A DNA stretch of 64,000 nucleotides from an uncultured Planctomycetia bacterium (lineage in GTDB: Bacteria; Omnitrophota; Gorgyraeia; 2-02-FULL-51-18), in contig CAZXLF010000002.1 of NCBI GenBank assembly GCA_964642015.1, positions 95,678 to 159,677 on the forward strand, in the 5' to 3' direction. Both the position numbers and the translations under genes were made by a program. Below, one piece after another: positions 21,093-55,674 of this stretch (positions within the stretch are counted from its first letter, which is position 1; each line of letters begins with the position of its first letter). The notes under the pieces were generated by a model. That model ran no database searches and was not told where the DNA came from. It was given only the letters and a program-made list of their open reading frames with translations.

Positions 21093-21095
21093 TTG

Positions 21096-21724: not shown

Positions 21725-21752
21725 TTGACAAAATAGGTCTATGTGATACAAT
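21725..21752 (+). promoter_or_regulatory. sigma70-like promoter: TTGACA (21725-21730) - 16 nt - TGaTACAAT (extended -10, 21744-21752)
   Basis: near-consensus hexamers read directly in the 175-nt intergenic region upstream of the MerR-like/ExeA/secretin gene array. Confidence 0.45.
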
Positions 21753-21846: not shown

Positions 21847-22095
21847 ATGTCCGAAAAGAGTAATCATCTGGTGACCGCAAAAGACATTTCCAAGAAGTAC
21901 AAAGTTCCTTATCCCACCATTAATCATTATACTGATCTGGGTTTCTTGCCGATCATCAAACGTGAAGGCAACAAGCGAATGTATGACGACAAACAGGTCC
22001 GCAACCGCCTGAGCATTATTTCAAAAATGATGAATGAAGGTTATCCGCTTCGGTTGATACGCCGAAAGATCGTCACCAAAGAGGGAGGAGTATGA
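21847..22095 (+). CDS. MerR-family HTH DNA-binding protein (short, no effector domain)
   Basis: 83 aa; VTAKDISKKYKVPYPTINHYTDLGFL ... NKRMYDDKQVRNRLSIISKMMNEGYPL matches MerR N-terminal HTH pattern. Confidence 0.55.
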   Translation: MSEKSNHLVTAKDISKKYKVPYPTINHYTDLGFLPIIKREGNKRMYDDKQVRNRLSIISKMMNEGYPLRLIRRKIVTKEGGV

Positions 22096-22096
22096 G

Positions 22097-22975
22097 ATGA
22101 GCTATTATCGCGTGCTCGGGTTTCAAAAGGAACCGTTTTCTACCAGCCCTGATCCTGAATTCTTTTATTCCTCCCGCGAACACGAGCGGGCACTGACTAA
22201 CGTGCTGATTGAGTTAAGGCTGAAGCGCGGTCTCAGTGTCGTATTAGGCGATGTCGGCACCGGCAAAACAACACTTTCCAGAAAATTGATACAAGATCTT
22301 AAAAATCGTGAGGATTGTCTTTTTCATATCATGCTGGATCCTACCTTTGAAAATAATGTGCTTTTCATACAGTCGCTGGTGAGGAATTTCGGCATGCTTC
22401 CTGAGGCCAACGGAAATGCGCCGATACCTTCAATGACCGATCTGCGTGAACGCTTGGAGCGGTTTTTATTCCAGAAAGGTGTTGTTGAAAATAAAACCGT
22501 GATCCTGATCATCGATGAAGCCCAGAAACTCAGCGAAACCTCTTTAGAGGCATTGAGGGTTTTATTGAATTATGAAACCAATCAATTCAAATTGCTTCAA
22601 CTTGTCTTGCTGGGTCAGATCGAACTTTTATCGACGCTTAAAAGCATCTCTAATTTTCTAGACCGCATCAGTTTTAAGACGCTTTTAAATCCGTTGGATT
22701 ACGCGGAAATGAAAGAGATGATTTATTTTCGCATAGGCCAAGCGGGATATAACTCCAGGATGGATCTTTTTCTGGAAGAGGCGTTGAAAGAGATCTACCA
22801 TTATACGAATGGTTATCCCCGGAAAGTTACTATGCTTTGTCACCGCGCTCTCAAAGAAATGTTAATGCGGAATAAACCGATCGTGGATCGCAGCATTATT
22901 GAGTCCCTGATACAAGATGAGGTGCATGCCGGATGGCAGATGACAGACAGGTTACTCCAGAAAAACAGCTATTAA
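22097..22975 (+). CDS. ExeA/GspA-like AAA+ ATPase (secretion-system associated)
   Basis: LGFQKEPFSTSPDPEFFYSSREHERAL N-terminus and GDVGTGKTTL Walker A, IIDEAQ Walker B - classic ExeA family; strong GGAGG RBS. Confidence 0.75.
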   Translation: MSYYRVLGFQKEPFSTSPDPEFFYSSREHERALTNVLIELRLKRGLSVVLGDVGTGKTTLSRKLIQDLKNREDCLFHIMLDPTFENNVLFIQSLVRNFGMLPEANGNAPIPSMTDLRERLERFLFQKGVVENKTVILIIDEAQKLSETSLEALRVLLNYETNQFKLLQLVLLGQIELLSTLKSISNFLDRISFKTLLNPLDYAEMKEMIYFRIGQAGYNSRMDLFLEEALKEIYHYTNGYPRKVTMLCHRALKEMLMRNKPIVDRSIIESLIQDEVHAGWQMTDRLLQKNSY

Positions 22976-23610
22976 ACCTGATCGAAGGTTCTGAGCAGGG
23001 CGCTTCGGGGCCTTTAGAAAAAGCGCGTATGAAGCGCAGCGCTCTTAGCGCGCTTTCTTTTGGTTCGATCTTCGGACGTTTTGCGTTTTTCAAACGGACG
23101 ACCCAAAAGAAGATCAGCAGTTCAAAGAAATTTTCGATCAGTTTCACAATTGTTAACCGACTGTTGTTCTTAGCGGTGGTCATTTTATTGGCTTATGTGG
23201 TCAGCGATTCGATCGCGTCCGCATTAAACCTGACGCATTTGCCAAATTTAGTGCCTCCAAGAGAAAAGGGAGCGTCGAATCTTGACAATAAAGCTTCCCC
23301 GCTGAAAGAAGAGAGCTATTATCTGCAGAAAGTGAATTCTCGGGATATATTCAAAGAATATAAGGAAGCCGAAACCAAGCAGGAAAAAAAAGAGGTGAGA
23401 CCTGTTGAAGAAAGCGATGCGGTTAAGAACTTATCATTGGTCGGTATTTCTTGGTCCGCTGATCCCGATGTGATCATTGAAGACAAGTCGGCGCAAAGAA
23501 CTTATTTTGTGAAGCGTGGACAGATCGTGGGTAATAATGTGAAAGTGGAGGCTGTATTTAAGGATAAGGTCGTGTTGAGTTATGAAGGGCAGGAGTTTGA
23601 GTTGAGATGA
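22933..23610 (+). CDS. PilP/GspC-like secretin-associated protein (TM anchor + C-terminal beta domain)
   Basis: TM helix LLFLAVVILLAYVV; C-terminal LSLVGISWSADPDVIIEDKSAQRTYFVKRGQIVGNNVKVEAVFKDKVVLSYEGQEFEL resembles PilP/GspC HR domain; start uncertain (overlaps ExeA 3' end). Confidence 0.4.
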   Translation: MADDRQVTPEKQLLNLIEGSEQGASGPLEKARMKRSALSALSFGSIFGRFAFFKRTTQKKISSSKKFSISFTIVNRLLFLAVVILLAYVVSDSIASALNLTHLPNLVPPREKGASNLDNKASPLKEESYYLQKVNSRDIFKEYKEAETKQEKKEVRPVEESDAVKNLSLVGISWSADPDVIIEDKSAQRTYFVKRGQIVGNNVKVEAVFKDKVVLSYEGQEFELR

Positions 23611-25562
23611 TCAAAAATAGAGGTTTCAAAATAGCAACCTTTATCATAATTGCCTTGATGGTTTTGGACCATTCCTTGGTATCCGCCAAAGACGACAAGA
23701 TTGTCATTCCACCGTCGACAACAGACTCTGCCGCACAGAAGAGTCCCGCGAGTGACGAAGGCAATGCCTCCTCCGCCCTCACCTCCAAAGAGGATGTTAA
23801 GGAAGACGTTAAATCTTCTGATAATAATTCAGTCAATAATTCGGTGAGTTCCGCAAATCCGAACGTTACCGCTTCTCAAGACAGCGATAATTCTACTTCC
23901 CCTGAGCCACAAGGTCATTTCACCAGCTTATCAAGCACCACCACGCCTCCTGCTCCATCACAGGAAATACAAGCAGGGAGCCAAGGTTTAGACGAGAAAG
24001 TTTCACTTGATTTACGGAACATCGAAGTCTCGGATGCAATACGTTTTATTGCGCAAAAAGGAGGCCTAAATTTAGCGGTTTCGAAAAATGTTTCAGGCCG
24101 TGTTCAGCTTCTTTTAAATAATGTTCCGGTAAGAGATATTCTGGATATTATCCTGATCACGAATCAACTCGCTTACGAAAAAAGAGGCGACATTTATTAC
24201 ATTATGACGGAAGCGGAGTATAAGGAGAGGTTTGGAAGAAAATTTTCTGACACAAGAAAAATCAAAGTGTTTCGTCTGAAGTATGCGATACCCGATCAGG
24301 CGTTCGCGCTTTTTGAAGTTCTGAAAAGTGAAATAGGGCGCCTTCTTGTAGACCCGGAGTCTGGCACAGTGCTTGTGATGGATTCGCAGGAAAATATCGA
24401 TCGCATGCAAATGGCGCTCGATGGACTCGAGCAAAAAAGAAATATCAAAGTTTACTCATTGAAATATGCGAAAGCCCTTGATATTGAGACCCGGCTCAAA
24501 GCCCAGCTTGATAGTAAAAAGGTCGGATTGATAAGCGCCGATGAGCGTACCAACCAGGTGATTGTAGAAACGCTATCTACGAGAATGGAAGACATTGATA
24601 TGCTGATCGAATCTCTTGATAAAAAGACCAAGGAGGTCTTGATAGAGTCCAAGATCGTCAAGGTTACGTTCAACAATAATTTTGACGCCGAGATCAAGTG
24701 GGATGGGATGGTTTCAAAACTTGCTAAATATGGAACTCAATTCATCGGCAATCATCCTTATGATGCATTGTTCAGAACGGGACAAAGTTTCATCGATAAC
24801 AACAACTACGTCAAGATAACGCCTACAGCTACACCGTCAGCCGGCGCGATGAGTGTGGCAACCAGCAATCTTTTTCTTGGCACGATCACTCCGGGAGGAG
24901 ACGCCTTTGAAACCATGATCAATTTTTTAAAAACAATAGGCGATACTAAAGTTTTATCTACTCCCAGACTTGCTGTCATAAACAATCAGGAGGCTAAGAT
25001 CCACGTGGGCGCAAAAGAAGCTTATGTGACCACGACCACAACTACGGGTCAGACTACGACAACGACCGCTGAAGCCGTTACCTTCGTGGATGTTGGTATA
25101 CAGCTTGCTGTTACTCCAACGATCAATGATGATGGCTTTGTGACAATGAAGATCAAACCTGAGATTTCAAGTGTAGTTGATACGCTTGTCACGCCTAGCG
25201 GCAACAAGATCCCAATTATTGATAGTTCATTGGCCGAAACATCGGTCATGGTTAAAGATGGTGTATCGATTTTGATCGGTGGCTTAAGAAGAGAAGATGT
25301 TGTTGAGACAAAGCAAAGCGTCCCATTTTTAGGTGATCTGCCGATCATTGGAAAACCGTTCACTTCCTCTTCTTCCCAGAAAACGCGCTCAGAGCTATTG
25401 ATTTTGATTACCCCGCACATCATTTACGGTGATGATTTTGTCACTGGAAGCAAAAAGGCCGTGGATAAACCCTATATGAGTTATTCGGATTACGAGTCCG
25501 TAAATCCGATCAATGTCCATAAAGCGCCCGCTGTAAAAGCAACACCTGTGGTGCATACATGA
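23607..25562 (+). CDS. secretin (GspD/PilQ family outer-membrane channel)
   Basis: C-terminal secretin domain VLSTPRLAVINNQEAKIHVG ... VMVKDGVSILIGGL ... SVPFLGDLPIIGKPF ... ELLILITPHII; N-terminal signal peptide; unusual long S/T/N-rich low-complexity N-region and poly-Thr insert. Confidence 0.85.
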   Translation: MIKNRGFKIATFIIIALMVLDHSLVSAKDDKIVIPPSTTDSAAQKSPASDEGNASSALTSKEDVKEDVKSSDNNSVNNSVSSANPNVTASQDSDNSTSPEPQGHFTSLSSTTTPPAPSQEIQAGSQGLDEKVSLDLRNIEVSDAIRFIAQKGGLNLAVSKNVSGRVQLLLNNVPVRDILDIILITNQLAYEKRGDIYYIMTEAEYKERFGRKFSDTRKIKVFRLKYAIPDQAFALFEVLKSEIGRLLVDPESGTVLVMDSQENIDRMQMALDGLEQKRNIKVYSLKYAKALDIETRLKAQLDSKKVGLISADERTNQVIVETLSTRMEDIDMLIESLDKKTKEVLIESKIVKVTFNNNFDAEIKWDGMVSKLAKYGTQFIGNHPYDALFRTGQSFIDNNNYVKITPTATPSAGAMSVATSNLFLGTITPGGDAFETMINFLKTIGDTKVLSTPRLAVINNQEAKIHVGAKEAYVTTTTTTGQTTTTTAEAVTFVDVGIQLAVTPTINDDGFVTMKIKPEISSVVDTLVTPSGNKIPIIDSSLAETSVMVKDGVSILIGGLRREDVVETKQSVPFLGDLPIIGKPFTSSSSQKTRSELLILITPHIIYGDDFVTGSKKAVDKPYMSYSDYESVNPINVHKAPAVKATPVVHT

Positions 25563-26659
25563 TACCGCCTATTTTTGCCAACGTTTTGCAGAAGATAAAA
25601 TGGCGGATGCTGTTGCCTATTGTTTTTTTTGTGATAATCATGCCAACCGTGTCTTTGGTCGGGGCTAATTTTTATAGTCGGTCGAGGGAAAAAAACCTTA
25701 ATTTAAAATATCGTCAGCTTGTAAATAAATACAATAATGTTGCAAAGGTTTATTTAGCTCTTAAAAAGAAATACGAAGATCTGCAGCTTGATAGGGACAA
25801 TGTGCTGAATCAGACAAAAAATCTTCTTTCAGAAAAATCCAAATTTGACGAGATAAAACAAAATGCGGAAGATCTCGAGAAAGCCAACGGAATTTTGACT
25901 ACTCAAAAAGATAAGCTTCACCAGGAGAGCGAGAAGCTTCGTGCGGAACGTCAAATGTTAGCCGAAAATTATAATCGTTTGAAAAAAGAATATGACGAGG
26001 ACATTAATAAGCAAGCTGCGCTGATGACGGAAAATGAAAATTTAAGAGCTGCCTTCCAAAAACAAGTGGAGAGCAGTCCTCAGTATCAGAAAGTGGATGC
26101 GGAAAATAAAGCTCTGAAAACTGATAACCAGACTCTGAAAGATACGATCAAGCGCCTTACGGATAGGCTGAATAAGGCCAATGATCGTATCAAGAAGATC
26201 AACGGCAGAGATTTGAAATTTGGTAAACAGATCGAAGGATACAAAAAGAATCTGAACCATCTGCTTCAGGAAAAGGCGCAGCTCGAGGAAACCAATAAAG
26301 CAATGAATAAGGCGGTCGAGGAGGCGCCGGACAAATTCAGGGATATGGCCGAAGAAAACAAGAGGCTGCTCAGGGAAACGGCAGAAATGCATTATAACTT
26401 AGGAGTTTTTTATACGGAAAATAAGAACTATACGTTAGCTGTTAAGGAATTCCAAAGGGCTTTAGATTTTAATCCGAATAACGCGAAGGTGCACTACAAT
26501 CTGGGGTATTTGCTTTCTGAAGAATTTGATAGGCATGAGGAGGCGATGGCTCATTTCAAGCGCTATTTGGAAATAAACCCGAATTCTAAAGAATCTGATG
26601 AGGTCAGAAATTATATGCTGGTTAGACAGGCTTACGGCGACAAAATCGGTAAGAATTGA
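25559..26659 (+). CDS. coiled-coil protein with C-terminal TPR repeats (pilus/secretion accessory candidate)
   Basis: N-terminal TM; ~250 aa heptad-rich K/E/L/Q sequence; C-terminal YNLGVFY.../AKVHYNLGYLL TPR-like repeats; ATGA overlap with secretin. Confidence 0.55.
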   Translation: MIPPIFANVLQKIKWRMLLPIVFFVIIMPTVSLVGANFYSRSREKNLNLKYRQLVNKYNNVAKVYLALKKKYEDLQLDRDNVLNQTKNLLSEKSKFDEIKQNAEDLEKANGILTTQKDKLHQESEKLRAERQMLAENYNRLKKEYDEDINKQAALMTENENLRAAFQKQVESSPQYQKVDAENKALKTDNQTLKDTIKRLTDRLNKANDRIKKINGRDLKFGKQIEGYKKNLNHLLQEKAQLEETNKAMNKAVEEAPDKFRDMAEENKRLLRETAEMHYNLGVFYTENKNYTLAVKEFQRALDFNPNNAKVHYNLGYLLSEEFDRHEEAMAHFKRYLEINPNSKESDEVRNYMLVRQAYGDKIGKN

Positions 26660-26764: not shown

Positions 26765-27439
26765 ATGAAAAAGTTCTTTTGGGTGATCGTCCTTGTCGGT
26801 TTTTCTATGATGTCGACGGCCCATGCTGATGAGAAAGTCTTAAGTACGGTAACAGCTCCGTCAGCCAAAAAAGATCCGGCCGCTGATGCCAAGCGAGAAG
26901 AAATGATAAAAATGATCGAGAAAAAGAAAGTGGATCTTAACGGTACAGAGTGGAAGGTGACTCTGACACCCGCGGATCACAAGGAAAAAGCAGAAGAAGA
27001 TGTGCTTACTTTTCAGAATGGACAAGTTGTGTCAAAGAACTTTTTAGAACGTGGTTTTACGGCCACTAATTATACGATATCTATTCCGGAAGGTAGTGAC
27101 ATAGGTGTTTGGGAAACGATGCAAACGAGTTCTAATTCGAAAGAGGGTGTCATATTTATTCGCGGTGAATGGAAGGATGACCAAATGCGAGGCATAGTTA
27201 GTCAGCAAGTAGAAGGCGGCAAATCAAGCAAGGATTATAATTTTAAGACAACTTCTAAAGCAAAGGTTTCGCCCTCGACAACCAAGTCTGAAGATAAGAA
27301 AACTGAGACTGGGCAGAGTAACGCTGCAGAAGGAGATGTTCAAGAGGACACCCAAAAGACAGCCGCTTCTACAAATGCGCTAGTCAGTTTAGAGTCATCT
27401 TCGGATGCAAAGAAACCGTCCAAAAATACTCATAAATAG
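26765..27439 (+). CDS. secreted hypothetical protein (signal peptide; ~110-aa domain shared with C-terminus of 27774..28994 product)
   Basis: N-terminal signal peptide FFWVIVLVGFSMMSTAHA; GGAGG RBS; internal paralogy to downstream gene. Confidence 0.5.
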   Translation: MKKFFWVIVLVGFSMMSTAHADEKVLSTVTAPSAKKDPAADAKREEMIKMIEKKKVDLNGTEWKVTLTPADHKEKAEEDVLTFQNGQVVSKNFLERGFTATNYTISIPEGSDIGVWETMQTSSNSKEGVIFIRGEWKDDQMRGIVSQQVEGGKSSKDYNFKTTSKAKVSPSTTKSEDKKTETGQSNAAEGDVQEDTQKTAASTNALVSLESSSDAKKPSKNTHK

Positions 27440-27493: not shown

Positions 27494-27522
27494 TTGACAA
27501 AGGAGTAAATATCAGGTATCTT
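27494..27522 (+). promoter_or_regulatory. candidate promoter TTGACA (27494-27499) - 17 nt - TATCTT (27517-27522)
   Basis: consensus -35 with correct spacing; preceded by AAATAGGTCTAT motif also found in promoter at 21.7 kb. Confidence 0.4.
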
Positions 27523-27528
27523 TGAATA

Positions 27529-27685
27529 GGATATTTGAATCTTTGATAGATTTGTTTAATCAGTCGAAAAGAGCAAACCTAAGGAAACTTAGGGACGCAA
27601 AGCCGTGCGTCCGCCGAAGATTTTGGCGGATTGGCAGGTTGCCGCGAAAATTGATCCAGGCACGGTTGGTTGCCTGGTTTTTTTT
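27529..27685 (+). ncRNA. candidate small structured RNA / attenuator leader (promoter-to-terminator unit, ~155 nt)
   Basis: series of perfect hairpins: CCTAAG-gaaa-CTTAGG (27577-27594), GGACGCA-aagcc-GTGCGTCC (27594-27613), CCGCC-n9-GGCGG (27610-27630), ending in terminator hairpin + U8. Confidence 0.3.
27656..27685 (+). terminator. rho-independent terminator: CCAGGCA-cggttggt-TGCCTGG followed by T8
   Basis: 7-bp GC-rich perfect stem and 8-T run read directly at 27656-27685. Confidence 0.5.
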
Positions 27686-27773: not shown

Positions 27774-28994
27774 ATGCCGAGGTTACCAAGGATCCACGTA
27801 GAATCAGCGATCTATTACGTAACTTCGCGGGCCCTGCGCGACCAGGAAATATTTAAGGAAAAGGCGGATTATCAAATGTATATTGAGCTTCTGAGCAAAT
27901 ATAAAAGCCAGCATAAATTCCTGCTTTATTCCTTTTGCTTATTGCCCGACCGCTTGAGCCTGCTGATAGAAACCAGCGATGATGCCACAATATCTGAGAT
28001 CATGCATGACTTGAACTCTCTTTACACGAAATATTTCAATGGGCGATATCAAAAGAGGGGGCATCTTTTTGAATCACGTTTCCGATCGGTCCTAGTGGAA
28101 AAACAGAATTTCCTTTTAAAAATGACACGCTTCATCCACCAATTACCCGGCGATTCTTTTAAAAATTATCCTTACACGAGCTACCATTTTTACGTTCAAC
28201 GCCCCGAAAGCGTGCCCGCGATCGATCTGACAGCGGAAGTCAGAACAGTCAAGGAATTCTTGGTCCAGTTGAGCGATCCTGATGCTTACGAAAAATATTG
28301 CCTCCAGGGCGATAAGAGCGAGATAGAAGAGTTAGCCAAAAGTCTAAAGCGCGGATCCGTGCTGGGATCCGACACATTTACCGCAGAAGTCCGCAATCGG
28401 ATCAAAGTGCATACCGAAAGCCAAAAGGAAACATCGGCCGGTGTTCAAGGATTAGGAAGATCTCAAAGAGTCGTTATTATGATGATCGGAGCCTTAGTGC
28501 TTGTTGCCACAGCTTCCTCGATCTACCTCTATATAAGCAAGACGTCGTTGGAAAATAAATATGCGCAGCTTCTGTCACAGAAAGAAGCCGAGTTCAAAGA
28601 GAAGATAAAATTTGAAAATCGAAATCCATTAGCGCCGACAGATCTTGAAGGGACCGAATGGATGATTGACCTGGTTCCTTTAAACGGGGATAAGAAAGAA
28701 ACTATTAAAGATAAAATATCTTTTAAACTGAGACACGTCACATCAGAACATTTCTCCTCCTTGGGTTTCAGCGGCACTAATTATTCTGTAACTTCAAATT
28801 CAAAAGGACTTGTTGTTTGGGAAACGATCCAATCGACGCCTAACGGTGACAGCCTCAGTTGGCGAGGTGACTGGGAGGGGGATGCAATGAAGGGAATTTT
28901 AAGTGTGCATTCTGCCGGCAAAGAAGCACAAGATTTTTCGTTTTTCAGCGTGAAATGGAGCTATCTGCATGAAGCTAAACAGTCAGAAAAATAA
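27774..28994 (+). CDS. fusion protein: N-terminal degenerate IS200/IS605-like (HUH/Y1 transposase-fold) domain + TM helix + periplasmic domain paralogous to 26765..27439 product
   Basis: PRIHVESAIYYVTSRALRD ... YQKRGHLFESRF resemble IS200 TnpA/RAYT, but HUH position reads DRLSLL (His lost) and catalytic Tyr region is GHLFESRF; TM VVIMMIGALVLVATASSIYLYI; C-terminal GTEW...GFSGTNY...VWETIQ...RGDWEGDAMKGILS aligns with upstream protein. Confidence 0.55.
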   Translation: MPRLPRIHVESAIYYVTSRALRDQEIFKEKADYQMYIELLSKYKSQHKFLLYSFCLLPDRLSLLIETSDDATISEIMHDLNSLYTKYFNGRYQKRGHLFESRFRSVLVEKQNFLLKMTRFIHQLPGDSFKNYPYTSYHFYVQRPESVPAIDLTAEVRTVKEFLVQLSDPDAYEKYCLQGDKSEIEELAKSLKRGSVLGSDTFTAEVRNRIKVHTESQKETSAGVQGLGRSQRVVIMMIGALVLVATASSIYLYISKTSLENKYAQLLSQKEAEFKEKIKFENRNPLAPTDLEGTEWMIDLVPLNGDKKETIKDKISFKLRHVTSEHFSSLGFSGTNYSVTSNSKGLVVWETIQSTPNGDSLSWRGDWEGDAMKGILSVHSAGKEAQDFSFFSVKWSYLHEAKQSEK

Positions 28995-29799
28995 GAAAGA
29001 GCATTTAGAGTTGCTGAAATTTTTATCAGGGCAAAGAAAAGAAATTTTGCCGTTCTGGCGTATCGTTGACTTTCAGCCTAATGATCTTTCTGTTTTGGAA
29101 TCCATGCATCGTGTTTCATGGAGACGCTATGTCTCTTCGATAGCTATGATCTTTCTGATCAGTGGATCGTGCGTTTTTATCGGGTTGATGAAGGGTCGGC
29201 CCGCTTGGGCATCCACAACAAAAGAGGATAGCGGTCTTGCCAGTAATGAAGGAGAGTTAAAGATTGAAGATATCAAACCGCTGAATGAGGACGGAGAAGA
29301 ACTTAAAGAAGATGCGGCGATCGCGGCAAAAGCCAAAGAATCTCATTTTGTGAGCGTGGAAAAGAAAAGACCTGCGAAACCGGCAGCATCGGACCTTCTT
29401 GGGCCTCAGCCTAAAAAAGGTTACAAGCCGAAGATATATATGGCGCCTCTTGATCCCGATGACGCTAAGATGAAAGGCATTGTAAAAAGTGTCACCGGGA
29501 AAATGACGGTTAAAAATACCAATGGATTGGCCGTCGAATATCAGGTCGATAAAGCGACGCATACTCCTAGAGAGATGTGGCTTAATTTTGTGGGCGGTAT
29601 GGAAGTGGCTAAAGCAAAGAGCATGGATGAGATTCAGCCGGGCGATACGGTCAAGGTCACTTATAAAATGCCCAAAGATGAATCCAGGAAAATCCTAACA
29701 AAAGTGGAGTTGGTTAAGCACAAACCTGTTCAAGTTGATGAATCTACTGCTAGCGGCACCAAAGAAGCTTCTTCTTTTCTTATGGATAAAAACTTATGA
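28969..29799 (+). CDS. hypothetical membrane protein (single TM, Lys/Pro-rich linker, C-terminal beta-rich domain)
   Basis: 276 aa; TM IAMIFLISGSCVFIGL; GGAG RBS 8 nt upstream; stop overlaps giant gene start (ATGA). Confidence 0.5.
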   Translation: MKLNSQKNKKEHLELLKFLSGQRKEILPFWRIVDFQPNDLSVLESMHRVSWRRYVSSIAMIFLISGSCVFIGLMKGRPAWASTTKEDSGLASNEGELKIEDIKPLNEDGEELKEDAAIAAKAKESHFVSVEKKRPAKPAASDLLGPQPKKGYKPKIYMAPLDPDDAKMKGIVKSVTGKMTVKNTNGLAVEYQVDKATHTPREMWLNFVGGMEVAKAKSMDEIQPGDTVKVTYKMPKDESRKILTKVELVKHKPVQVDESTASGTKEASSFLMDKNL

Positions 29800-32700
29800 G
29801 CAATGGATCGGAACGCATAATAGAGAATTTTAAAAGGACAGCACACAGACAGATTAAGCCCTGTGTCTTTTTATTCTCTTTAGCATTTGTGTTCCAGCTC
29901 TTTCTTTGTTCTGATGCTTCCGCTGTGCAGATCAATAAAATTTATCGAGGTATTGTTAGTTTTGACGTAGGCGATGTCCTTCAGTCCGTTAACTTGGGTG
30001 CCAACGTTGATCCTACGAAGACCATAGTTTTAGTCAGCTCCACAGGCCGTGATTCTGTTTCAAGAACTCAAGGTGAAGGAAATTATTGGTTTGCGGGAGT
30101 TCTTGCCGGAACCGATACGGTGGTGCTGAAAAGACTGCGTTCTGATATGACCGGGTCTGTAGCTTGGCAAGTCATTGAATTTAATGATGGCGTGAAAGTC
30201 CAGTCAGGAGAAACTATTTTGGATGTTGTTGCTGGATCAGCGGGATTATCGAGACAAGTTGATCTTCCGACGCAGATCAGTGATACGACAAAAGCAGTCC
30301 CGATCATTCAATTCATGAGCTCTCTCGGAGCCGGACAAAACGTCGCCCCTCAGCCGGTTTACCAGAACACTGATCAGTATATGTTTTTTCCAACCCTTTT
30401 TCAGAACGGTAGTATCACGGAACTTCAAATAGATCGTACTCGATGCACGACGGTTAACAGGGCCCGCGCTGCCGATATTATTTGGCAGGTGATCGAATTC
30501 CAGACTGATGCGCGTGTGATCAGTGGGCAGACGATGATGTATGTGCCCGGTAGCACCGGCGGACGATCCGCGTCTAACGTTCGCCCTCAAACAGCAACGA
30601 ATGATGGGACTGCTTTCCCCGCAAATACGGTTTGCGCAAATACTGGTGGTGTTTGTTCTGCTTTTACGAATTCAAGCGCATTCAGCCCCACTTTGTCTAA
30701 TAGCGGCCAGAACGCAATGCTGTTTTTTAACGTATTACCGGGCGTTTCCACTGTGAACAACTCTCCCGTTGGATGGTCATCGACAAGCAGTAACGCAAAT
30801 ATGTCTACGAACGGATATAGCGGTGAAGATGCTTACCTTTATGTGCGTGGTACTATTACCAACAACACGACCGTAACGTTTACCCGCGCCGCAGCCCCTA
30901 GTACCGCAAACACGAATCTTCTTATAAAATATTGGGTCGTGGATTTTGTGGAAGGAGGCAGTGGTTCTTCCTATATAGGGTTGGGACAAAAAGGCAACGA
31001 TGCGGGCCAAACCACCGCTGCGCCGGCCACGGTTTCAGTCAGCAGTGAAGCCGCGGGTACTTCAGATATTATCGTGACGTGCGGTTCTAACCACGGGTTC
31101 ACACAATATAAATTGACCAATTTTTCTCCAGGCACTAATACAACTCAATGCGAAGCGAGCGGTTCTTGGATTGTGGGTACTCAAACCTGGACTGCGGCGA
31201 CTTTTAGTGAAGATGGGTCAGGAACCACCATTTCCTCAACCAATAGTGCTTCAGTGTCCCAAGGAATTGAAACTGCTTTGAATACGACCACGGCATTGGA
31301 TAGAATGATGAATGTCGGCTATGTAGCCGCTACTGTAGCAGCGCCTTCTACGGTTAACATCTCTTCGTCTGCCAATAGCGGTACCGTCAATATATCATCT
31401 TCGACAAATACCACTACCTATAATATTTCAGCGTCAACGAATAGCCCTTCGTTCAATATCGCATCTTCTACCAACGCCAATCCTATTGTGATCACGACGT
31501 CCGCCGCTCATGGTTATTCCAATGGCGATATAGTCCAGGTCATGAATCATCAGACCAACACGGCTGCCAACGGGACCTGGACAGTGGCTGGTGTGACGGC
31601 GACTACTTTTCAATTGACTGGTTCGAATGGCAATGGCGTCGGTGGTGCGACCGGCACTGTGCAAAGATGCATCAAGATCACAACCACTGCGACGAATACT
31701 TATGCGACAGGCGATCTCATTACCGTCAGCGGCCATACAATTAATACGAACGCGAACGGTACTTGGCCGATCACAGTGATTGACGGGACGCATTTTTATC
31801 TTCAGGGCGCGCTTGGCAATGGAACAGGTGGTACGACAGGCACTGTTGCCAATGCGATTAAGATCACAACCTCCGGTGCCCATGGTTTAAGTACTGGTTA
31901 TGAGGCGTATATCAGCGGCCATACAACAAATACCAACGCGAATGGTACTTGGACCGTCAATGTGCCGACTGGCAGCACGACAACATTTAATCTTGTCGGA
32001 TCTACAGGTAATGGCACCGGCGGAGCAACAGGCACTGTAGGAAGAATAGTTACTGTGACTACAGCCGCAAGCCATAACCTTGCCGTAGGCAATGAAGTTT
32101 ATATCACAGGGCATACATTGGATACCAATGCGAATGGTACCTGGACTGTTTTGACTGCTCCCACCGCGACGACTTTTACGATTGCGGCGGCAGCTAACGC
32201 GGCTGGCGGCGCAACCGGCACGATTGCGTTATATAATGAAGCGGCTCTTTCGACGACATATACCTATGTCGATGACTTGAGTTTTATAAACTATGCTTAC
32301 ACTCGTACCAATCCGTATTTGATTACATTGCGCGATTCCAATTCTAGAGGTATCGCGGCAAGTATAGATTATTTAACCTATGAATTTCCGGCAGTCACTT
32401 TAAAAGTGCCGAACGGCGGTGAAACTTGGGCAGTGGCTGACAGTAATTTTACGACCAACAATAAGATCACGTGGAAAACTTCGGTGAACAATTCCGCGCA
32501 TAACTGGAAACTTCAATACTCCACGAACGGCGGCACAAGCTGGACAGATATGGGAAGCTGGTGCGGTGGGGCAGGAACTTCCGCTTGCAGCAGCAGCTCT
32601 CATGATCTGGGAACCCAAGGCACGGCCGGCATAACTTGGCGTGTGCCGGATGCTTTGAATGATGCGGGTCCGCCGGCAAATCTTATCGGGTCAAATTTAA

Positions 32701-35700
32701 AACTCAGGATCGTGGATACAGAAGATGCTTTGTATAACGGTGGTACGGAAGGAGCACCCAACTATCCCGAACTGCGTATCAAAGACGCGTCAAACTCCGC
32801 ATTCAAAGTATACGGGACCATTACAAATGTTGTGACCAATCCGGACGCCACCGGCTCGAATTATTGGGGCTATAACGCGTCGAGCCGTCAGGTCCGCTGG
32901 AACCAAACCGGTAATGTCGGCACCGTGAGGATCAACATTGATTACAATAAGGATGGCGTTTTCGATTCTAATGATAACGGAACATTCGGCGGAGTTGCTC
33001 TCACGGGTTATCCGGCGCAGAGCGGTATTACGGTCGGAGCCGGTAATCTGGTCAGCGGTAATACGTATTATGTGAATTGGAATAACGCTTGGGATTATTC
33101 AACAACAGGATTGAAAGTTCAGATCGCGGCTGATACGGATAGTTCAGGAACGGGTAATGAACACGGTGAATCCGCCGCATTTGAAATAAGACCTACGATC
33201 ACTTTAACGGCTCCAGCTAGTTCATCCTCTGTGAACCGTGGAAAATCAACCAATATTACTTGGACATCGTCGGGACAGATCGGGAATTGCGACATATATC
33301 TTTCATACAATAACGGTGCGGACGGGTATCCTACCAAGTTGAACGGCTCAGCAGTTAATGGCGATGGTGGAACATGGGCATGGAATGTTAGCTCAACTGA
33401 AACACTCACCAGCGGTGCAAAGCTTTGTATTGTACGACAAGGTTCTACTCCGGCCAGCTTCACAGTCGGCGACACAGGTCCGCACGGAGGTACTGGCGCT
33501 TTCAGTATTTTATCATCCGTTGCTCTTACAAATCCTGTGGCAGCTCAAAATCCCCCTTGGGTGGTGAATGCGGATCAGACGATTGCTTGGACGACTTCAG
33601 GCGGCAGCGGTGTGACGAATGTAGATCTTTTGTATCGTACGGATTGTGCGGGTTCGCCTAATTGCGGAGGTACAACATCAGGTTGGACGGCTGTTCCAAG
33701 CGCGACGAATATCACGAATAACGGCTCGTTCACATGGTTTTCTTTGCCGGCAAGCTTGCAAGGAACCTCGACTGGTATCCGCGTGCAAGACCACAACAAT
33801 GCCACTACTATTTATGATCAAGTTGGTCCGTTCACGACCAAGCCCAGCGTTTCATTCGATAATGTGACGGATACTCCGAACTCATCCACGGTTTGGAGGG
33901 TAGGCGATAATCAAACGATCACATGGCATAAAAACGGCACCACAGGAAATTTAACGGTGGTTTGGGGCACTAACGGTCCCGGCGGACCATGGCCTAATAC
34001 GATCGCGACCGGAGTTACTGGCACTTCGACACCGTGGAACAATATCCCAGCTGGTGCGATCTCTAACAATGTTTCCATTAGAGTTTATGATCCAGGGGAT
34101 TCTACTTATGTTACAGGTGCTTCACAGGCTTTTTCGGTGAAAGCAAATATCACAAATGTGGTTTTAAGAAAGGGCACATTGGGCACTGACCCTATAAGCG
34201 CGTCATTCCAGATCGATGATCCAATGAGAATTGAATGGAGTGTCAGCCCTTCGAACCTCAGCGATACCGTTGATATTAAACTTGATACAAATAGCGGTAA
34301 AGGTGCTGATGGAATTGCCGGCAACGCAGATGATTTTCAAACGTACACGATCGCGAGTGTTCCTGCTTCACAGGGTTATGCGCTTTGGAATCCGATTTCG
34401 AACAATAGCGCCTACGTTTCATCTAAAGCTCGTATCCGTGTTGTTTCTCAAGTGGATTCCGCGGTCAAAGCTGATTCGGGCGGAGGCTCTTCGGATTTTG
34501 CCATTAACGGTGTGCTCTATATCACAGACCCTGTCGGTTCTCCGTGGAAGATCGGACAGGTTCAAAATATTAATTTTACCGCGAAAGGTGTTCCGAATGT
34601 AGATATCATTTATGCGCTGAATGGCATCACGTTCAATGATATTGCGACACAGACCAAAACAGTCGTGACCGGTTACGCTTCGGCTAGCGGCGTGTATCAA
34701 TGGACGATACCCAATGACGCTCTTGATATTGCTTCATCCAGCATATTCAATGACACAAAGACCACTATTAAATTCAGGGTCAAAGACCCGAATAATTCAA
34801 ATGTTTATGCGACAACCACGACTGCTCTTACGTTGCGTAAGCAATATCAGAACATCGCCGTGCCCGCTTCGGTCCTGCATGTCGACGACAACAGCGCGCA
34901 ATTAAGCAATATTACTTGGACCACAAAAGGGAACACCGACACTTCGCATCCTGTAAAACTTTATTACGATCTGACGAGCGGATCCGGCGGTTATGCAAAT
35001 ACTATTCCAGTGAGCGGAAACAATATTACCGACGTTGGTGGTTATGTTTGGCAGGTGCCGGCAAGCGCTATATCCAATAATGTCAGGATCAAAGTGGCTT
35101 CTGCCACGGATACCGGTACTGTTTATGACACAATGACGTCAGATTTTACTATTCGCGGTTGGTTTGCTTTCACTACGCCGCCTGCGAGTCCGGCGGATAT
35201 TTTGAGAATAGGCGGCAACTATACCATTCAATGGACCAATCACGGCGTGTTCCCTGACGCAGGAAATCCCAATCATCGCAATGTGTCACTCCTTTATTCA
35301 AAAGATGGCACCAACTATACAAATATCGTAACTGATGGAGCGACGTTTTATACCAATGGCAGTCAGAGTTATACGTGGTCCAACATACCTTATGCGGCGC
35401 GCGGTGCCACGTCTTTGAAAGTCCAATATGATGCGGACTCTTCGAACACTTATTTAGTGTCCCCGGCTATCAAAACAAAACCGTCAGTGAGCGTTACTTC
35501 GCCCAGCGGCGGTACTTATCATATTGGAGACGCGGTACCGATCCAGTTTACCCACACCGGCGCTACGGATGGAAGCGACGTTTATAGAGCGAGGTATTCG
35601 ATCGATGGAGGAACGACCTGGACCACGATCGGGACCATTGCGGCCAACAGCGCGAATATGACTTATTCTCCGGCGTTTACGGTTCCTAATGTTGCTAACA

Positions 35701-38700
35701 TCGTTGCCGGGAGCGGTAAATTTAAGATCAGAGTTGAGTTGGTTGGTGATGAGACCGATGTGACCTCTGATTCATCAGGAAATCAAATATTAGGTAGCTT
35801 AGGACCGATGACACCGACCGCATCAGGAATAACCTGGACAGCCGCGGATACTACACGCCAGATCACATGGACTCCACAGGGTATTACCACAGTTAAAATT
35901 GAATACGCAACCGATGGCGTAACATTTAATAACGTTATTGCAAGCTCCGCAACTGGTAATAGCTATACATGGCCGTCAATACCGGGATCTGCAGTCAGTG
36001 ATAATGTAAAGATCCGTATCACGGCCCAGGATACGAACGATAGCGTGACTTCGATCACGTCAGGGAATTCATTGACCATCGTGCCCCAATTAGTTTTGGT
36101 GGCGCCTAACGGCCCATCGACCCGCACGGTCGGCGCCGCTATGCCGATCACATGGACATCCAGCGGTGCGGGCAATATTAAATTGGAATACACGACCAAT
36201 GCCAACGCCGGATCTCCGACATGGACCACTTTGACCAATTATTCCAATTTTGACAGCACGCCTCAATCGGATAATAGCGCAACTGTTCCTGACGCGATCA
36301 GCAGTCATGTAAAATTCAGACTCTCGAATGTTACGGCAAATCCGAATCTACAAGTTTACAGTACTTCTAATACAGAATTTGCGATCCAAGGCGGATTAAC
36401 TTTGAATAATATTGCCGGACCTTTTACTTTGGGAGATACGGTTAATGTGACGTGGACTCCCAATGGATCAATGGGCAATATCACGGTCGAATATTATAAC
36501 GGTAGTTCGTGGAGCACAATGACGACTACGGCGCCGCAGGCAGGGCCATATGCGTTGGTTTTGGATACGGTCAACAGTATTAACACAGCGACTAATCTGG
36601 CCAAGGTGAGAATATCCGCGACGAACGGCTTGGCTCCTGCGACTACATCCTCAGCTTTCACGGTCAAACCGTATCTTACAGTGACGAGTCCGGCAGGCAA
36701 TGAGGCGTGGGTTGTTGATTCTTCTCAAAATATCGGATGGACGATCAAAGGGTCCAACATTTCGCAGGTTTCGATCTATTATTCAAAAGATAGCGGGACT
36801 ACATATAACAATCTGATCATTGATCCCTTGAACATCAATTTCGGCGGCGGGAATAACATGACCTATTCCTGGACGATTCCGGATGATATTCAGGCAACGA
36901 AAAATATGAAGGTGAAAGTCTCCACCCTTCCATTATCCGACCCGTGGGCAACTAGTGCTGTGTCGAATGGTCTTTTCCAGATCGTCGGGCAATTAGCGAT
37001 GAAGATACCTGATAATACGACACCGATCCAATGGCGCGTGGGATCCAACGGCAATATTATCAAGTGGACCAATGTTCATGGTTCGGTCGCAAACGTTGAA
37101 CTTGATTATTCGACGGCGGGCGATGGAGGTCCCTGGACAGCGATCACGACTTCAACAACATCGGGAGGCCCAGGAGATCACACCTTCTCCTGGGATATAG
37201 CCAATAATTTTTCTATCGTGAAAAATAATTTCCGTATTCGCGTGTTGGATGCAGCAAATAATAATGTTTCTAACGCTTCCACTGCTACAAGCTCCACTTT
37301 GGCTAACTTCACGATCACTCATCCCACAAGCGGTGATGTGTGGGTCGCTGAAACAACGAATACAATACAATGGTCCACACCCAGTGCTGGTGTTCCATCA
37401 AATGTGAAAATTGAATATTGCTTATCAAGCTGCGGAACTCCTGGGAATTGGAATCCTATCCCTGAAAATGACGGTACTCCAAACGATGGTATTGTGACAA
37501 ACTCCGGTTCTGTGAACTGGACGCTTGGCACAACACGCACTAACTCCGCTCAGATCAGAATTTCAGATCCCAATGATTCCAGCAGCATTATTACCGGAAC
37601 CGCATTCAAAATAAGGGGAGATTTTACCGTCACCTCACCCACAACTGGACTTGAGTCTTGGGATATTAACAGTACTCACGCGATCACTTGGACAAAGAAA
37701 GGCAATGTCTCAACCGTGAAATTACAGTATTCCAATAATGGCGACGCAGGACCGTTCAATGCTTTGGTGGATGGAAATTCCGCCGACACGCAGAATATTG
37801 ATGTTTCGGGTGTGGGCCCTACATATACTTTTAACTGGAAGATCCCGGATATTGCAGGACAGACTTCTGTTCATGCCAAGATCCGTGTAGTGGATACTTC
37901 TGATAGCACAGTCTATGCGACATCAGGCAACGAATTTACGATTAAGGGCCATGTGAATCTGTCTCAACCGAACGGTGGCCAGACTCTCACCGTGGGCTCT
38001 ACCTATAATATAACAGGTACTGTGGATGGTGTCGGCATCACGAATGTGCGTATGTATTATTCGACGGACGGCGCGACATTTCCGATGGGTATTAACGAAA
38101 CGTCCGGTGGTTTGGTCGTGCCGGTTTCCTCAGGCACTTTCAGTCAAGCATGGAGCATTCCTGATCATATAGGCACTAACACACTTGTCCGCGTTGAAGA
38201 TTCTACCAATTCAACCGTTAATGCTATTTCAGCATCCACATTCTCCATCAAAGGCGGTGCGACGATAACCGCACCTACCGGGACCAGTGTCTGGGTCGCA
38301 GGAACTCAACAAAATATAGTATGGGACAGGAATGGTACGATCGGTAACGTAGATCTGTATTATCAGGTGAATGGTGGAGCTTGGACCGCGATAGCGACGG
38401 GAATTAGTTCGCCCAATCCGACAGGCAACACTTTCCCCTGGACCATTCCTTCAAATAATATTGTGTCGAATAATGTAAAGATCAAGATTGACGGCACCAA
38501 TCTCGCAACTCCGGCAATTTCCTCCGCATTCACTGTGAAAGGTTCTATCGCGATTACTTATCCTGACGCTACAGGCATTGTTAAAAGTTTGGGTGATTCT
38601 CTGACAGTGACTTGGAATGTGCAAGGCGATATTGGGAATGTGCAGGTTGAATACTATAATGGCTCTGCTTGGAGCACGATCACGACGACCGCTACTCAGG

Positions 38701-54086: not shown

Positions 54087-54126
54087 TAGAGTTTAATAAC
54101 GCTAAAAGATATACTATAATGACATC

Positions 54127-54975
54127 ATGTTGATAAGCTCCAAGAACGCTTCTGGTGTCTATCAAAAGATAGCGAAAATCGCTTTGATTTCGCTATTTTT
54201 TTCTTGTTTGTTCACCCATCTTTCATGGGCCGCCGGTACGGTTAAAATGCGTATCATGCTGGTGAATCCATCCACATCAAAAACCCAGACCAAATCAGTC
54301 AAAAATTACCTTCCAAAAGAAATTACTCAAAAGAATATCTTGGATGCCGGAGGCCTCGAGGTTGATTATGACCAAGAGCAAGGACTTTTTTATGTATTCA
54401 AGAATGAGGTAGAGCTTGCCCCGTCGGAGACTAAAACTTTTGAAATAGTGCTCGAGGATGTTTGGGCCATTCCCAAAGAAAAGTTGGATGAATACCGCAA
54501 TCGTACAAATGCCGTACTCGAGCGTTTAAAAAATACGGCTTATTTTAATCAGGCCGATCTGATCGGTAAGACGATCATTGGACGGCTCGACGACATTGAT
54601 AGAACCCAGAATGATCTGTCGGTCAGCAAACAACAAAAAATAGCTTATTACCGGGATAATCTCAAACTGCTAGACCAAGTGAAAGATGATCTTGAAAAAC
54701 TTGAAAAGCTCCTTGTGGCCGTGGGCGGTCCTCCGAACCTTGAATTGATCGAAAAATCAGATATTAACCTCAAGTCGCCTTCATCCAAGACAACATGGAT
54801 CGTGATCTTTATCGTTTTGATCTTCATAGGCATACTCTCGGCAACTTTCTATTTTACGTGGATGCGTCAAGCGAGTTTAACGGAAAACATTTTTACGAAA
54901 GAAAAAGAAAATTCATTCGCTGAATTTAAGCCTACACCTCCGGAAGGAGGCGGTGAAGCGGAGAAAAAGACTTAA
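54127..54975 (+). CDS. hypothetical bitopic protein (N-terminal signal/anchor, soluble coiled-coil-containing domain, C-terminal TM)
   Basis: N-terminal IAKIALISLFFSCLFTHLSWA and C-terminal TTWIVIFIVLIFIGILSATFYF hydrophobic segments; begins 41 nt after giant gene stop. Confidence 0.5.
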   Translation: MLISSKNASGVYQKIAKIALISLFFSCLFTHLSWAAGTVKMRIMLVNPSTSKTQTKSVKNYLPKEITQKNILDAGGLEVDYDQEQGLFYVFKNEVELAPSETKTFEIVLEDVWAIPKEKLDEYRNRTNAVLERLKNTAYFNQADLIGKTIIGRLDDIDRTQNDLSVSKQQKIAYYRDNLKLLDQVKDDLEKLEKLLVAVGGPPNLELIEKSDINLKSPSSKTTWIVIFIVLIFIGILSATFYFTWMRQASLTENIFTKEKENSFAEFKPTPPEGGGEAEKKT

Positions 54976-54991
54976 GCCGTAAGTTTATTTC

Positions 54992-55240
54992 ATGGATAAA
55001 CAACAACGCCTCGAACTGTTAGTTCTTAGCCCTGAGCGCCTGATTTATGAAGGGCAGGCGAGCAGTATTGTTTTGCCAGGCGAGAACGGCGTTTTTGAGA
55101 TATTGCCATTCCATAAAAGGCTTCTGTCGCGGCTTCTTGCGGGGCTCGTGATCATTGATAGAAAAGTCATGAGGATCAAACGCGGTGTTGTAAAGGTGGG
55201 ATTGAATCGCGTGACCCTCATCGTCGAGGAAGCCACATGA
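54992..55240 (+). CDS. atpC: F-type ATPase epsilon subunit, N-terminal beta-sandwich domain only (no C-terminal helical hairpin)
   Basis: 82 aa; LELLVLSPERLIYEGQASSIVLPGENGVFEILPFHKRLLSRLLAGLVII matches epsilon N-domain pattern (L.v.ivtPe...eg.v..v..pg..GefgiLp.H.pl...L..G.v). Confidence 0.6.
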   Translation: MDKQQRLELLVLSPERLIYEGQASSIVLPGENGVFEILPFHKRLLSRLLAGLVIIDRKVMRIKRGVVKVGLNRVTLIVEEAT

Positions 55241-55319
55241 ACCCAGCACTTGACATTAAAATTTTCAATGAACTTATCAAGGGTTGGGCGAATCCGGATT
55301 TGGGAGGACTTTTAACGGG

Positions 55320-55544: not shown

Positions 55545-55600
55545 CCCCAGTTCAATAAAGAAACAGCATATATGCGGCACTTGGAATTTATATAAAAATG

Positions 55601-55629: not shown

Positions 55630-55674
55630 TTGATTAAAATAATGAGTTTTTATATACCATAGAATAGGTAATTC

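Follow-up and report, generated by a model that had tools for sequence, protein, structure and literature searches.

Omnitrophota are widespread ultra-small bacteria that are thought to live as predators or parasites, and to our knowledge nobody knows how they attach to their prey. The locus described here raises the question of why the two halves of a secretin-dependent filament system lie on either side of a giant gene and a set of F-type ATPase genes. The window that we analysed is a stretch of 64,000 nucleotides (nt) from an uncultured Planctomycetia bacterium placed by GTDB in the Omnitrophota (GenBank assembly GCA_964642015.1, contig CAZXLF010000002.1, positions 95,678 to 159,677 of the forward strand); positions below refer to it unless another contig is named. 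A first-pass annotation, made from the letters alone, had offered two explanations: either the giant gene inserted into an ancestral type IV pilus or type II secretion system (T2SS) cluster, or the whole region is one functional unit. From gene content and synteny in relatives, one functional unit now appears well supported. The genes between 21.8 kb and about 69.5 kb, a point 5.5 kb past the window end, are predicted to encode one conserved envelope machine, and by its gene families this machine is a type IV filament-superfamily system closest to the T2SS and the mannose-sensitive haemagglutinin (MSHA) pilus. Such a machine would probably serve as a dedicated secretion and display system for the giant fibre, controlled by cyclic di-GMP (c-di-GMP) and equipped with an accessory F-type ATPase that does not translocate ions.

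All genes of interest lie on the plus strand, and their identities come from Pfam and NCBIfam profile matches to the window proteins. These matches confirmed the earlier description of two same-strand modules some 34 kb apart: the secretin side occupies 21.8–26.7 kb, the GspE side 60.1–64 kb, and the gap between them (26659 to 60142, 33.5 kb) holds p224, a Y1_Tnp-like protein, p276, an open reading frame (ORF) of 8,096 amino acids (aa), p282 and the F-type set. The secretin side is headed by a MerR-like helix-turn-helix regulator of 82-84 aa (21847..22095, or from 21841; PF13411, identical product), which is kept ahead of ExeA in L007, L008 and L173 (L numbers denote the contigs and loci of our surveys). 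It is followed by an ExeA/GspA/MshM-like AAA_22 ATPase (22097..22975; AAA_22 74 bits, TIGR03015 175 bits against a cutoff of 324), a GspC/GspB-like bitopic protein with a transmembrane (TM) segment at residues 77-95 (22933..23610; T2SSC 47.5 bits, cutoff 27; weak GspB match in the C-terminus), the secretin (23607..25562; STN, two Secretin_N and Secretin), and a Tgl/PilW/MshN-like protein composed of a TM segment, a long coiled coil and a C-terminal TPR region (25559..26659), a putative secretin assembly factor. The secretin gave intermediate scores against the PilQ, GspD and MshL models, every one under its equivalog cutoff (PilQ subfamily 248.7 against 284, GspD 223.7 against 351). On the other side of the gap, a stand-alone MshEN protein of 151 aa with a c-di-GMP-binding motif (60142..60597; NF053729 59 bits, cutoff 38) precedes a GspE/PilB-type ATPase carrying an N-terminal MshEN and a C-terminal PilZ domain (60599..62791; gene-caller start 60653) and a GspF/PilC platform protein (62795..64000), which is cut at the window end and has a full length of 421 aa in L001. 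The ATPase scored 577.7 with the GspE model (cutoff 630) and nearly as high with PilB, and the Pfam domains of the secretin, the GspE ATPase and the GspF platform were all detected.

The first-pass annotation had also stated that the system lacks pilins. None is indeed encoded in the window, where a six-frame prepilin motif scan gave a single chance match, inside a glycosyltransferase, and tblastn with the locus's own pilins gave a best E value of 0.13. However, this absence is an artefact of the window edge, because the window ends just before the pilin genes. Contigs L001 and L169 match window positions 50142-64000 with 0 mismatches and together extend about 8.7 kb further; the exact window sequences are also present in four Logan assemblies of related runs. 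The downstream order is GspF, Peptidase_MA_2, GspG, two minor pseudopilins, a GspK-like protein, a PilM-PilN fusion and a PilO-like protein. GspG itself (L001 14793-15242, outside the window) carries the motif KGFTLIELM and scored 143.2 bits with TIGR01710, above the cutoff of 88.85; the GspK-like protein reached 102 against a cutoff of 130, and the GspJ match was weak. The earlier suggestion to look beyond the platform gene for prepilin and prepilin peptidase genes was thus borne out for GspG and the minor pseudopilins but not for the peptidase: neither the window nor the 9 kb that follow GspF contained a Peptidase_A24 gene, which may lie elsewhere in the genome. GspL and GspM were not found, their place being taken by the PilM-PilN (PilM_2 + PilN) fusion and the PilO-like protein. 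No PilT-type retraction ATPase was detected in the window, L001 or L169, and the GspG-type protein is the sole major pilin. The Peptidase_MA_2 protein (HEITH; L001 13919-14800) has an N-terminal TM or signal segment and stands between GspF and GspG in most linked loci. Beyond the cluster (L169 18795-22139) lie a minus-strand TPR protein and a Rotamase_2/Pro_isomerase peptidyl-prolyl isomerase (PPIase), and on the plus strand past the PPIase a 102-aa ORF and then a LysM/Amidase_2 gene.

The secretin, the ExeA/MshM-like ATPase, the MshN-like TPR protein, the MshEN-bearing MshE-type ATPase and the platform follow the relative order of the MSHA operon, which is mshLMNEG, and GspG, GspK and GspC are shared with the classical T2SS. 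In contrast to both, the present locus has PilM-PilN and a PilO-like protein for GspL/M, a PilZ domain fused to the ATPase, Peptidase_MA_2 between GspF and GspG, no prepilin peptidase in the locus, and an embedded giant cargo gene with an F-type ATPase.

Whether these parts belong together is best judged from relatives. The named homologues of the F-type alpha subunit and of the secretin come almost all from Candidatus Omnitrophota/Omnitrophica metagenome-assembled genomes (MAGs). Relatives with alpha identities of 82%, 74% and 64% share one gene order in three of three cases, namely giant ORF, (p282), epsilon, c, b/delta, alpha, gamma, beta, MshEN, GspE-PilZ and GspF, and two of the three continue with Peptidase_MA_2, GspG, minor pseudopilins, GspK and PilMN. 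A scan with the alpha profile over one genome per species yielded 80 loci, which were mapped by tblastn with the window proteins; most were canonical ATP synthases (the pattern REAYPGDI being universal) and were used as controls, and L088 was not counted as linked, its minus-strand GspE-like gene being unrelated. All loci with an alpha identity of at least about 47% (L010-L027) have the secretion-linked arrangement, and these include MAGs labelled Planctomycetota, Lentisphaerae and Victivallales; the canonical atp loci, among them L046 and L052 from Omnitrophota, lie at 41-46%. GspE follows beta in all 14 linked loci that are long enough, as opposed to 0 of about 62 canonical atp loci. Moreover, p282 and giant-type repeats are found 5' of epsilon/c in 16 of 17 loci, the exception being L019 from Planctomycetota.

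Anchoring on the secretin gave a second view, in which a metagenome scan returned 79 loci that fall into four patterns. Pattern A, that of the window, is found in about 14 contigs (e.g., L092-L094, L111-L113, L119, L130, L142 and L153). The same string is seen on the 546-kb contig of L004, which reads MerR, ExeA, GspC, secretin, a 380-aa protein, p224-like, Y1_Tnp-like, p276-like and giant gene, and in L007, where the secretin module is followed by p224, Y1_Tnp-like, p276 and giant genes. In pattern B (L008, L099-L101, L107) a pilin module from GspF to the PilO-like protein has MerR-ExeA-GspC-secretin within about 3 kb after it. Pattern C is the compact locus L108, ExeA-GspC-secretin-TPR-GspE-GspF-GspG through to the PilO-like gene, with no cargo and no F-type genes, and pattern D is L165 (11460-19521), where b/delta-alpha-gamma-beta and PilM-PilN come directly after the secretin module. 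Because of these four patterns the two halves can be assigned to one system. An ancestral contiguous cluster appears plausible, and the cargo and F-type blocks would be modules placed repeatedly between or beside the halves. The comparison of relatives with and without the giant gene, which had been proposed as a check, showed that gene order is conserved across phyla and that the compact L108 has no insert. As L108 makes an ancestral cluster plausible alongside the conserved synteny, 'one unit' and 'insertion' need not be alternatives. What stood of the two earlier explanations is the functional unit, on the grounds of cross-phylum synteny, fusions, tight spacing and shared c-di-GMP control, and, through L108, insertion as a plausible history; what did not stand is the opposition between them.

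Some further arrangements were seen in these surveys. Two loci looked up through p282 differ in context: L173 has a large Laminin_G_3 protein and p282, then MerR, secretin, T2SSE and pilin genes, and no F-type ATPase, and in L172 the genes that come after p282 are unrelated ones. In L165, epsilon, c, p282 and the giant gene are absent, so that epsilon/c and the cargo are missing together in this one case. Two tandem secretin paralogues, often with an ORF of at least 1,000 aa between them, occur in many metagenome contigs (L111, L117, L123, L131, L134, L138-L140, L144, L145, L156, L159 and L162).

The cargo gene (29796..54086) encodes an 8,096-aa protein with a signal peptide, repeats and a conserved C tail. 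An N region of 865 aa, signal peptide included, is followed by at least 66 FN3/Ig-like units of about 94 aa each (residues 866-7557) and by a coiled-coil C tail of 539 aa. A model of the repeat unit, from an alignment of 36 units of the window, is a seven-strand beta-sandwich (predicted local distance difference test, pLDDT, 95.3) whose closest match is an FN3-like module (TM-score 0.64), and the Pfam signals in the protein are Kre9_KNH, Reelin-B and Big_7. Other loci have a conserved N region and C tail but variable repeats. The G+C content rises from about 0.41-0.44 to about 0.47-0.49 over the giant gene.

Directly downstream, p282 (54127..54975) comprises an N-terminal signal or TM helix, a beta-sandwich, a three-helix bundle and a C-terminal TM helix (model pLDDT 87.6). 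It has no Pfam family, and Foldseek against the PDB gave no match at E <= 0.001 and weak matches of the beta-sandwich to proteins resembling carbohydrate-binding modules. Among its close homologues (n = 96) the C-terminal TM segment is one of the best-conserved parts, and this conservation suggests specific intramembrane contacts. In L005/L006 (40% identity, E 3e-61) and in L011 the giant ORF itself ends in this module. Searching 1.84 billion representatives with a profile gave 1,002 members; of the 150 best, about 30 are 1,000-5,013 aa long and match at their extreme C-terminus, and some members have two or three tandem copies. Because it is fused to giant C-termini in relatives, p282 is best read as a membrane-anchor module of giant proteins that is split off into a separate gene here.

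The role of the F-type complex is the interesting question of this locus. The first-pass annotation had correctly placed an 'F1-like' set between the two modules, but the designation F1 is too narrow, as epsilon, c and a membrane-anchored b/delta are also present and only a is missing. The set consists of a divergent epsilon of 82 aa that has the N-terminal beta-sandwich only, its C-terminal domain being missing (54992..55240), a c-like subunit (55284..55544, probable start 55320), a b/delta fusion for the peripheral stalk with an N-terminal TM helix, a b-like helix and a C-terminal domain of the oligomycin sensitivity-conferring protein type (55675..56394), alpha (56387..57871), a divergent gamma (57880..58743; 93 bits against a cutoff of 194) and beta (58757..60142). 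The catalytic subunits look well preserved: alpha scored 543 and 568 bits with atpA and beta 560 bits with atpD, all above the NCBIfam equivalog cutoffs, and beta matches solved F1 beta chains over its whole length (497 bits), with Walker A (GGAGLGKS), the catalytic Glu and Walker B all intact. In a neighbour-joining tree, the linked alphas form one clade that is split from every canonical alpha at the midpoint root.

The membrane part is different. The c-like subunit keeps the RNP loop, has Ser at the position of the ion-binding Glu/Asp, and is without the Gly-rich packing motif in helix 1. The ion-binding Glu is lost in 9 of 20 linked sequences, the window's included (S, G, Q or I instead), and kept in 11; it is kept in 8 of 8 canonical sequences. 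A hidden Markov model (HMM) of the a subunit, built from 8 canonical sequences, found no match in the 64-kb window or in 24 linked loci, and the same model matches the canonical Omnitrophota loci L046 (E 1.5e-32) and L052, where a adjoins c/b. On this basis, the complex is predicted to have a catalytic head, a rotor shaft, a degenerate c and a membrane-anchored stalk, with no ion path in the locus. Its inferred task is a mechanical one or one of assembly, fuelled by ATP hydrolysis, and it may power or augment secretion of the fibre, as had been suggested. As L173 has cargo, p282, secretin, ATPase and pilin without it, the F-type ATPase would be an accessory and not a universal requirement.

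The c-like gene was missed by gene callers on Logan contigs, which called a 63-aa minus-strand ORF instead (L001 5136-5327); the plus-strand protein is 44-70% identical across loci, its L006 orthologue matches PF00137, and the apparent gap at the c gene in L011 is a run of N in the scaffold. Versions from Lentisphaerae and Victivallales (L024 10001-12870, L025, L026) have two tandem alpha paralogues and the rearranged order alpha, alpha', epsilon, c, gamma, beta. An N-ATPase ancestry, considered on account of a similar gene order, was rejected, since every alt_F1F0 model scored under its cutoff (alpha 506/750, beta 497/752, gamma 26/282, b 62.5/224.7) and there is no a subunit.

An F1-derived ATPase with a non-synthesis role is known from the gliding machinery of Mycoplasma mobile, which has an F1-like G1-ATPase and giant leg proteins. 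The present locus is similar in that such an ATPase is encoded with very large surface proteins. However, the window proteins fall under the cutoffs of all Mycoplasma type 2/3 models (MMOB1660/1670 and MSC_0618/0619; 400.6/600, 419.5/850, 301/520 and 377/570), each of these scores is lower than those of alpha and beta with canonical atpA/atpD, and beta gave 337 bits with the M. mobile G1-ATPase beta (PDB 9io5) versus 497 with canonical chains. The setting also differs, with a diderm envelope, a secretin and pseudopilins, and a c-like subunit and b/delta stalk are kept.

A shared second messenger may tie the cargo to its exporter. The giant-gene operon is led by a predicted c-di-GMP-I riboswitch aptamer (RF01051; 27562..27646; 64.2 bits over a gathering threshold of 35, E 2.9e-10, full model), the sole Rfam family matched in the whole window. 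A promoter-like site, TTGACA-17-TATCTT, lies 5' of it (27494..27522; consensus match only), and 10 nt past it comes a terminator-like hairpin with a T8 tract (27656..27677), likely the expression platform. The riboswitch has the same relative position in L093, L094, L111 (a GGC variant), L113 and L119, and it was not detected in eight other pattern-A loci nor in L108. The PilZ domain of GspE has the motifs RxxxR and NxSxxG. Because of the riboswitch, the MshEN motif and PilZ, c-di-GMP would act on both cargo transcription and the assembly ATPase. No gap between neighbours exceeds 130 nt from the Y1_Tnp-like gene through GspF, where some genes overlap, and the window has no strong plus-strand terminator-like site after 27677. 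The secretin unit, from MerR to p224, looks like a separate transcript, with a promoter-like site of its own (21725..21752; TTGACA-16-TACAAT with a TG extension, 11/12; consensus match only).

Between the secretin module and the giant gene are three accessory genes, for which, as for p282, PHROGs and PDB sequence searches gave no useful match. The domain search assigned no family to the secreted p224 (26765..27439). The Y1_Tnp-like protein (27774..28994), first gene of the giant operon, has a Y1_Tnp-like N-domain, a TM helix and a periplasmic p224-like domain; p276 (28969..29799), bitopic and likewise without an assigned family, has a 4-nt overlap with the start of the giant gene. A domain of about 90 aa (GTEW...TNY...VWET...GEW) is common to p224 and the C-terminal periplasmic part of the Y1_Tnp-like protein. 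The latter has DRLSLL at the position of the expected HUH motif in addition to its TM helix, and its gene is positionally conserved 5' of giant genes at 28-55% identity; it looks like a domesticated fold rather than a mobile element.

Immediately 5' of the secretin unit is a glycan-synthesis locus (1-21665), partly syntenic in L007 (1-8073), with epimerases, many GT1/GT4 glycosyltransferases, FkbM methyltransferases, a carbamoyltransferase and a WecA-like Glycos_transf_4 protein. As 24% of the residues of the giant protein are Ser or Thr and this locus lies upstream, glycosylation of the fibre is possible. Between a cupin gene and the MerR-like gene is an ORF of 190 aa (21093-21665) that has a hydrophobic segment at its N-terminus and matches no family. 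The combination of an ExeA-like ATPase with an upstream glycan locus also suggested a PEP-CTERM/XrtA system, which was rejected on the TIGR03015 score (175 against a cutoff of 324) and because the ExeA-like gene always accompanies GspC and the secretin.

Taken together, the following mechanism can be proposed. High c-di-GMP would turn on the cargo operon and activate GspE. The giant protein would be exported via Sec, using its N-terminal signal peptide, and p282, a separate protein here and a fused module in relatives, would retain it at the inner membrane. The pseudopilus would then push the giant protein through the secretin to give a surface fibre of some 250-300 nm, an estimate that takes about 70 repeats at an assumed length of about 4 nm each, and with this fibre the ultra-small cell might attach to cells of its prey or host. 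The F-type complex, presumably unable to translocate ions, would act as an ATP-hydrolysing mechanical or assembly device of the apparatus and not as an ATP synthase. It is quite unlikely, though conceivable, that this ATPase is a channel-less rotary motor, with gamma, epsilon, a carboxylate-less c-ring remnant and the b/delta stalk kept, and that it has a mechanical connection to the fibre or the platform. Such a motor might be coupled via the conserved TM helix of p282 or via the GspF platform, and would turn, tension or feed an FN3 fibre of about 0.3 micrometres threaded through the secretin. Giant adhesins with comparable features are known: LapA-type adhesins are c-di-GMP-controlled and secreted by a type I secretion system (T1SS), and Flavobacterium SprB is driven by the rotary motor of the type IX secretion system (T9SS). 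LapA-type proteins share with the present one giant repeats and a display tied to c-di-GMP, and SprB shares a giant adhesin driven by a rotary motor. However, export here would be by a secretin and pseudopilus and not by a T1SS or T9SS, control would be by riboswitch, MshEN and PilZ, and the candidate motor is an ATP-driven F-type complex rather than one driven by the proton-motive force.

Several points weigh against a dedicated fibre-display system of this kind. We know of no precedent for a secretin that lets a multidomain protein of 8,096 aa pass, and a prepilin peptidase was not found in the locus. The hairpin and riboswitch separate the secretin unit from the cargo unit and thus indicate at least two transcripts. 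The modules can evidently function apart, because L173 has no F-type ATPase and L108 neither cargo nor F-type ATPase; in L172, from a V. archaeovorus MAG, the genes that come after a 3,180-aa protein and p282 are unrelated. Glu is retained in those 11 of 20 linked c subunits, and a subunit a may be encoded elsewhere in the linked genomes. Finally, the alpha- and secretin-anchored surveys are biased towards loci with those genes.

The components of the locus are not without published counterparts. Seymour et al. 2023 (Nat Microbiol, PMC10066038) described a non-respiratory F-type ATPase beside type IVa pilus (T4aP) clusters in Omnitrophota, within 10 kb of T4aP genes in 57 of 66 contigs; they grouped its alpha with Mycoplasma type 2/3 ATPases, treated giant ORFs as a separate trait, and suggested attachment and motility on host cells. 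The present locus is from the same phylum and has the same features, namely an F-type ATPase of the non-respiratory clade by type IV filament genes and giant ORFs in the genomes; its alpha lies outside the respiratory clade, and its beta abuts MshEN and GspE. In contrast to that description, the gene string here includes the giant gene and p282, the set reads epsilon-c-b/delta-alpha-gamma-beta with no a, alpha and beta are nearer to canonical F1 than to the Mycoplasma types by HMM and PDB scores, and the arrangement is also found in Planctomycetota and Lentisphaerae MAGs. A text search of that paper found no mention of subunit a or of a c-ring. West-Roberts et al. 2023 (bioRxiv 10.1101/2023.11.21.568195) reported T2SS-like loci near Omnitrophota giant genes, with gspD/gspE/gspF-type genes, class III signal peptide genes, a Rotamase_2 PPIase and PilZ proteins as neighbours. 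Their giants exceed 30,000 aa, have many TM segments and SecA-DEAD domains, and have the secretion locus upstream. T2SS-type genes near a giant gene and a Rotamase_2 PPIase just downstream are seen here too, but the giant is here a secreted fibre of FN3 repeats, 8,096 aa long, whose gene separates the two halves of the system; that paper makes no mention of ATP synthase genes. The flank statistics reappear in a 2026 preprint, which notes that gamma is rarely detected. The texts of these papers mention no missing a subunit, c-ring, ATP synthase genes beside giants, p282 or riboswitch, and broader literature searches found no paper on such a machine. The locus thus belongs to a published kind as regards co-location of F-type ATPase and pilus genes (Seymour et al. 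2023) and proximity of giant genes to T2SS genes (West-Roberts et al. 2023). The literature searched did not contain the Fo remnant without a and Glu, the p282 anchor with its fusions, the riboswitch, relatives with a compact or permuted gene order, or such loci outside Omnitrophota.

On the published view, the locus might encode a T4aP, retractile or adhesive, for attachment and surface motility on hosts, next to an independent giant adhesin, with the F-type ATPase powering motility as in Mycoplasma gliding. Seymour et al. (PMC10066038) classed the clusters as T4aP with that ATPase co-located in 57 of 66 contigs, a PilM-PilN fusion and PilO-like protein replace GspL/M, PilQ is the secretin's best score, and the GspE protein matches PilB nearly as well. 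Nevertheless we consider this reading unlikely, as the major pilin is above the GspG equivalog cutoff, GspK-, GspJ- and GspC-like proteins are present, and there is no PilT-type ATPase in the locus. Nor does the gliding analogy fit a beta with 497 bits to canonical F1 and 337 to the M. mobile G1-ATPase, or an alpha and beta under the Mycoplasma type 2/3 cutoffs; and the supposedly independent adhesin gene lies with p282 inside a gene string of conserved order, p282 being fused to giants in relatives.

Two readings that dissociate the inserted genes from the secretion system fare worse. A fortuitous insertion of the giant gene, with or without the F-type set, in an ancestral T2SS/MSHA-like operon would leave the two uncoupled, and the Y1-like gene that opens the cargo block would be left over from that mobility. 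The compact L108 without any insert, the higher G+C across the giant gene and the module order that differs between lineages can all be cited for it. However, the order giant gene, p282, F-type set and GspE is kept across phyla and in loci with as little as about 47% alpha identity, the Y1_Tnp-like gene keeps its position and encodes a TM helix, a periplasmic domain and DRLSLL in place of the expected HUH motif, cargo operon and GspE are under the same second messenger, and the higher G+C matches repeats rich in Thr, Ser, Gly and Ala; an uncoupled insertion is thus very unlikely. It is equally hard to credit, and we regard as most improbable, that the F-type set is a housekeeping F1Fo ATP synthase or ion pump with atpB elsewhere, next to secretion genes by chance or for co-regulation. 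This would account for an alpha and beta that pass the atpA and atpD equivalog cutoffs, for intact catalytic motifs in beta and for the Glu kept in 11 of 20 linked c subunits. It would not account for the Ser in place of the carboxylate and the missing Gly-rich motif in the window's c, for an a subunit absent from 24 linked loci and present beside c/b in Omnitrophota L046 and L052, for an epsilon without its C-terminal domain and a highly divergent gamma and c, for the separate clade of linked alphas, or for GspE adjacency in 14 of 14 against 0 of about 62 loci; Seymour et al. (PMC10066038) likewise term the clade non-respiratory.

The probable reading, a c-di-GMP-controlled system for secretion and display of a giant fibre, joins in one gene string three traits that have so far been discussed apart, namely giant proteins, pilus/T2SS-like genes and a 'non-respiratory' F-type ATPase, and adds c-di-GMP control and p282 as a defined membrane anchor. 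Were these traits functionally linked, this would be the first secretin/pseudopilus system dedicated to a giant fibre and a natural F-type ATPase without an ion path in which rotor and stator parts are kept, and the locus would provide a concrete parts list for cryo-electron tomography, proteomics and heterologous reconstitution. With about 1,000 cluster representatives, p282 would serve as a marker for such giant surface proteins. Should the rotary-motor version be true, it would define a new class of envelope-spanning machine for prey attachment or surface motility in Omnitrophota and some bacteria of the Planctomycetes-Verrucomicrobia-Chlamydiae group.

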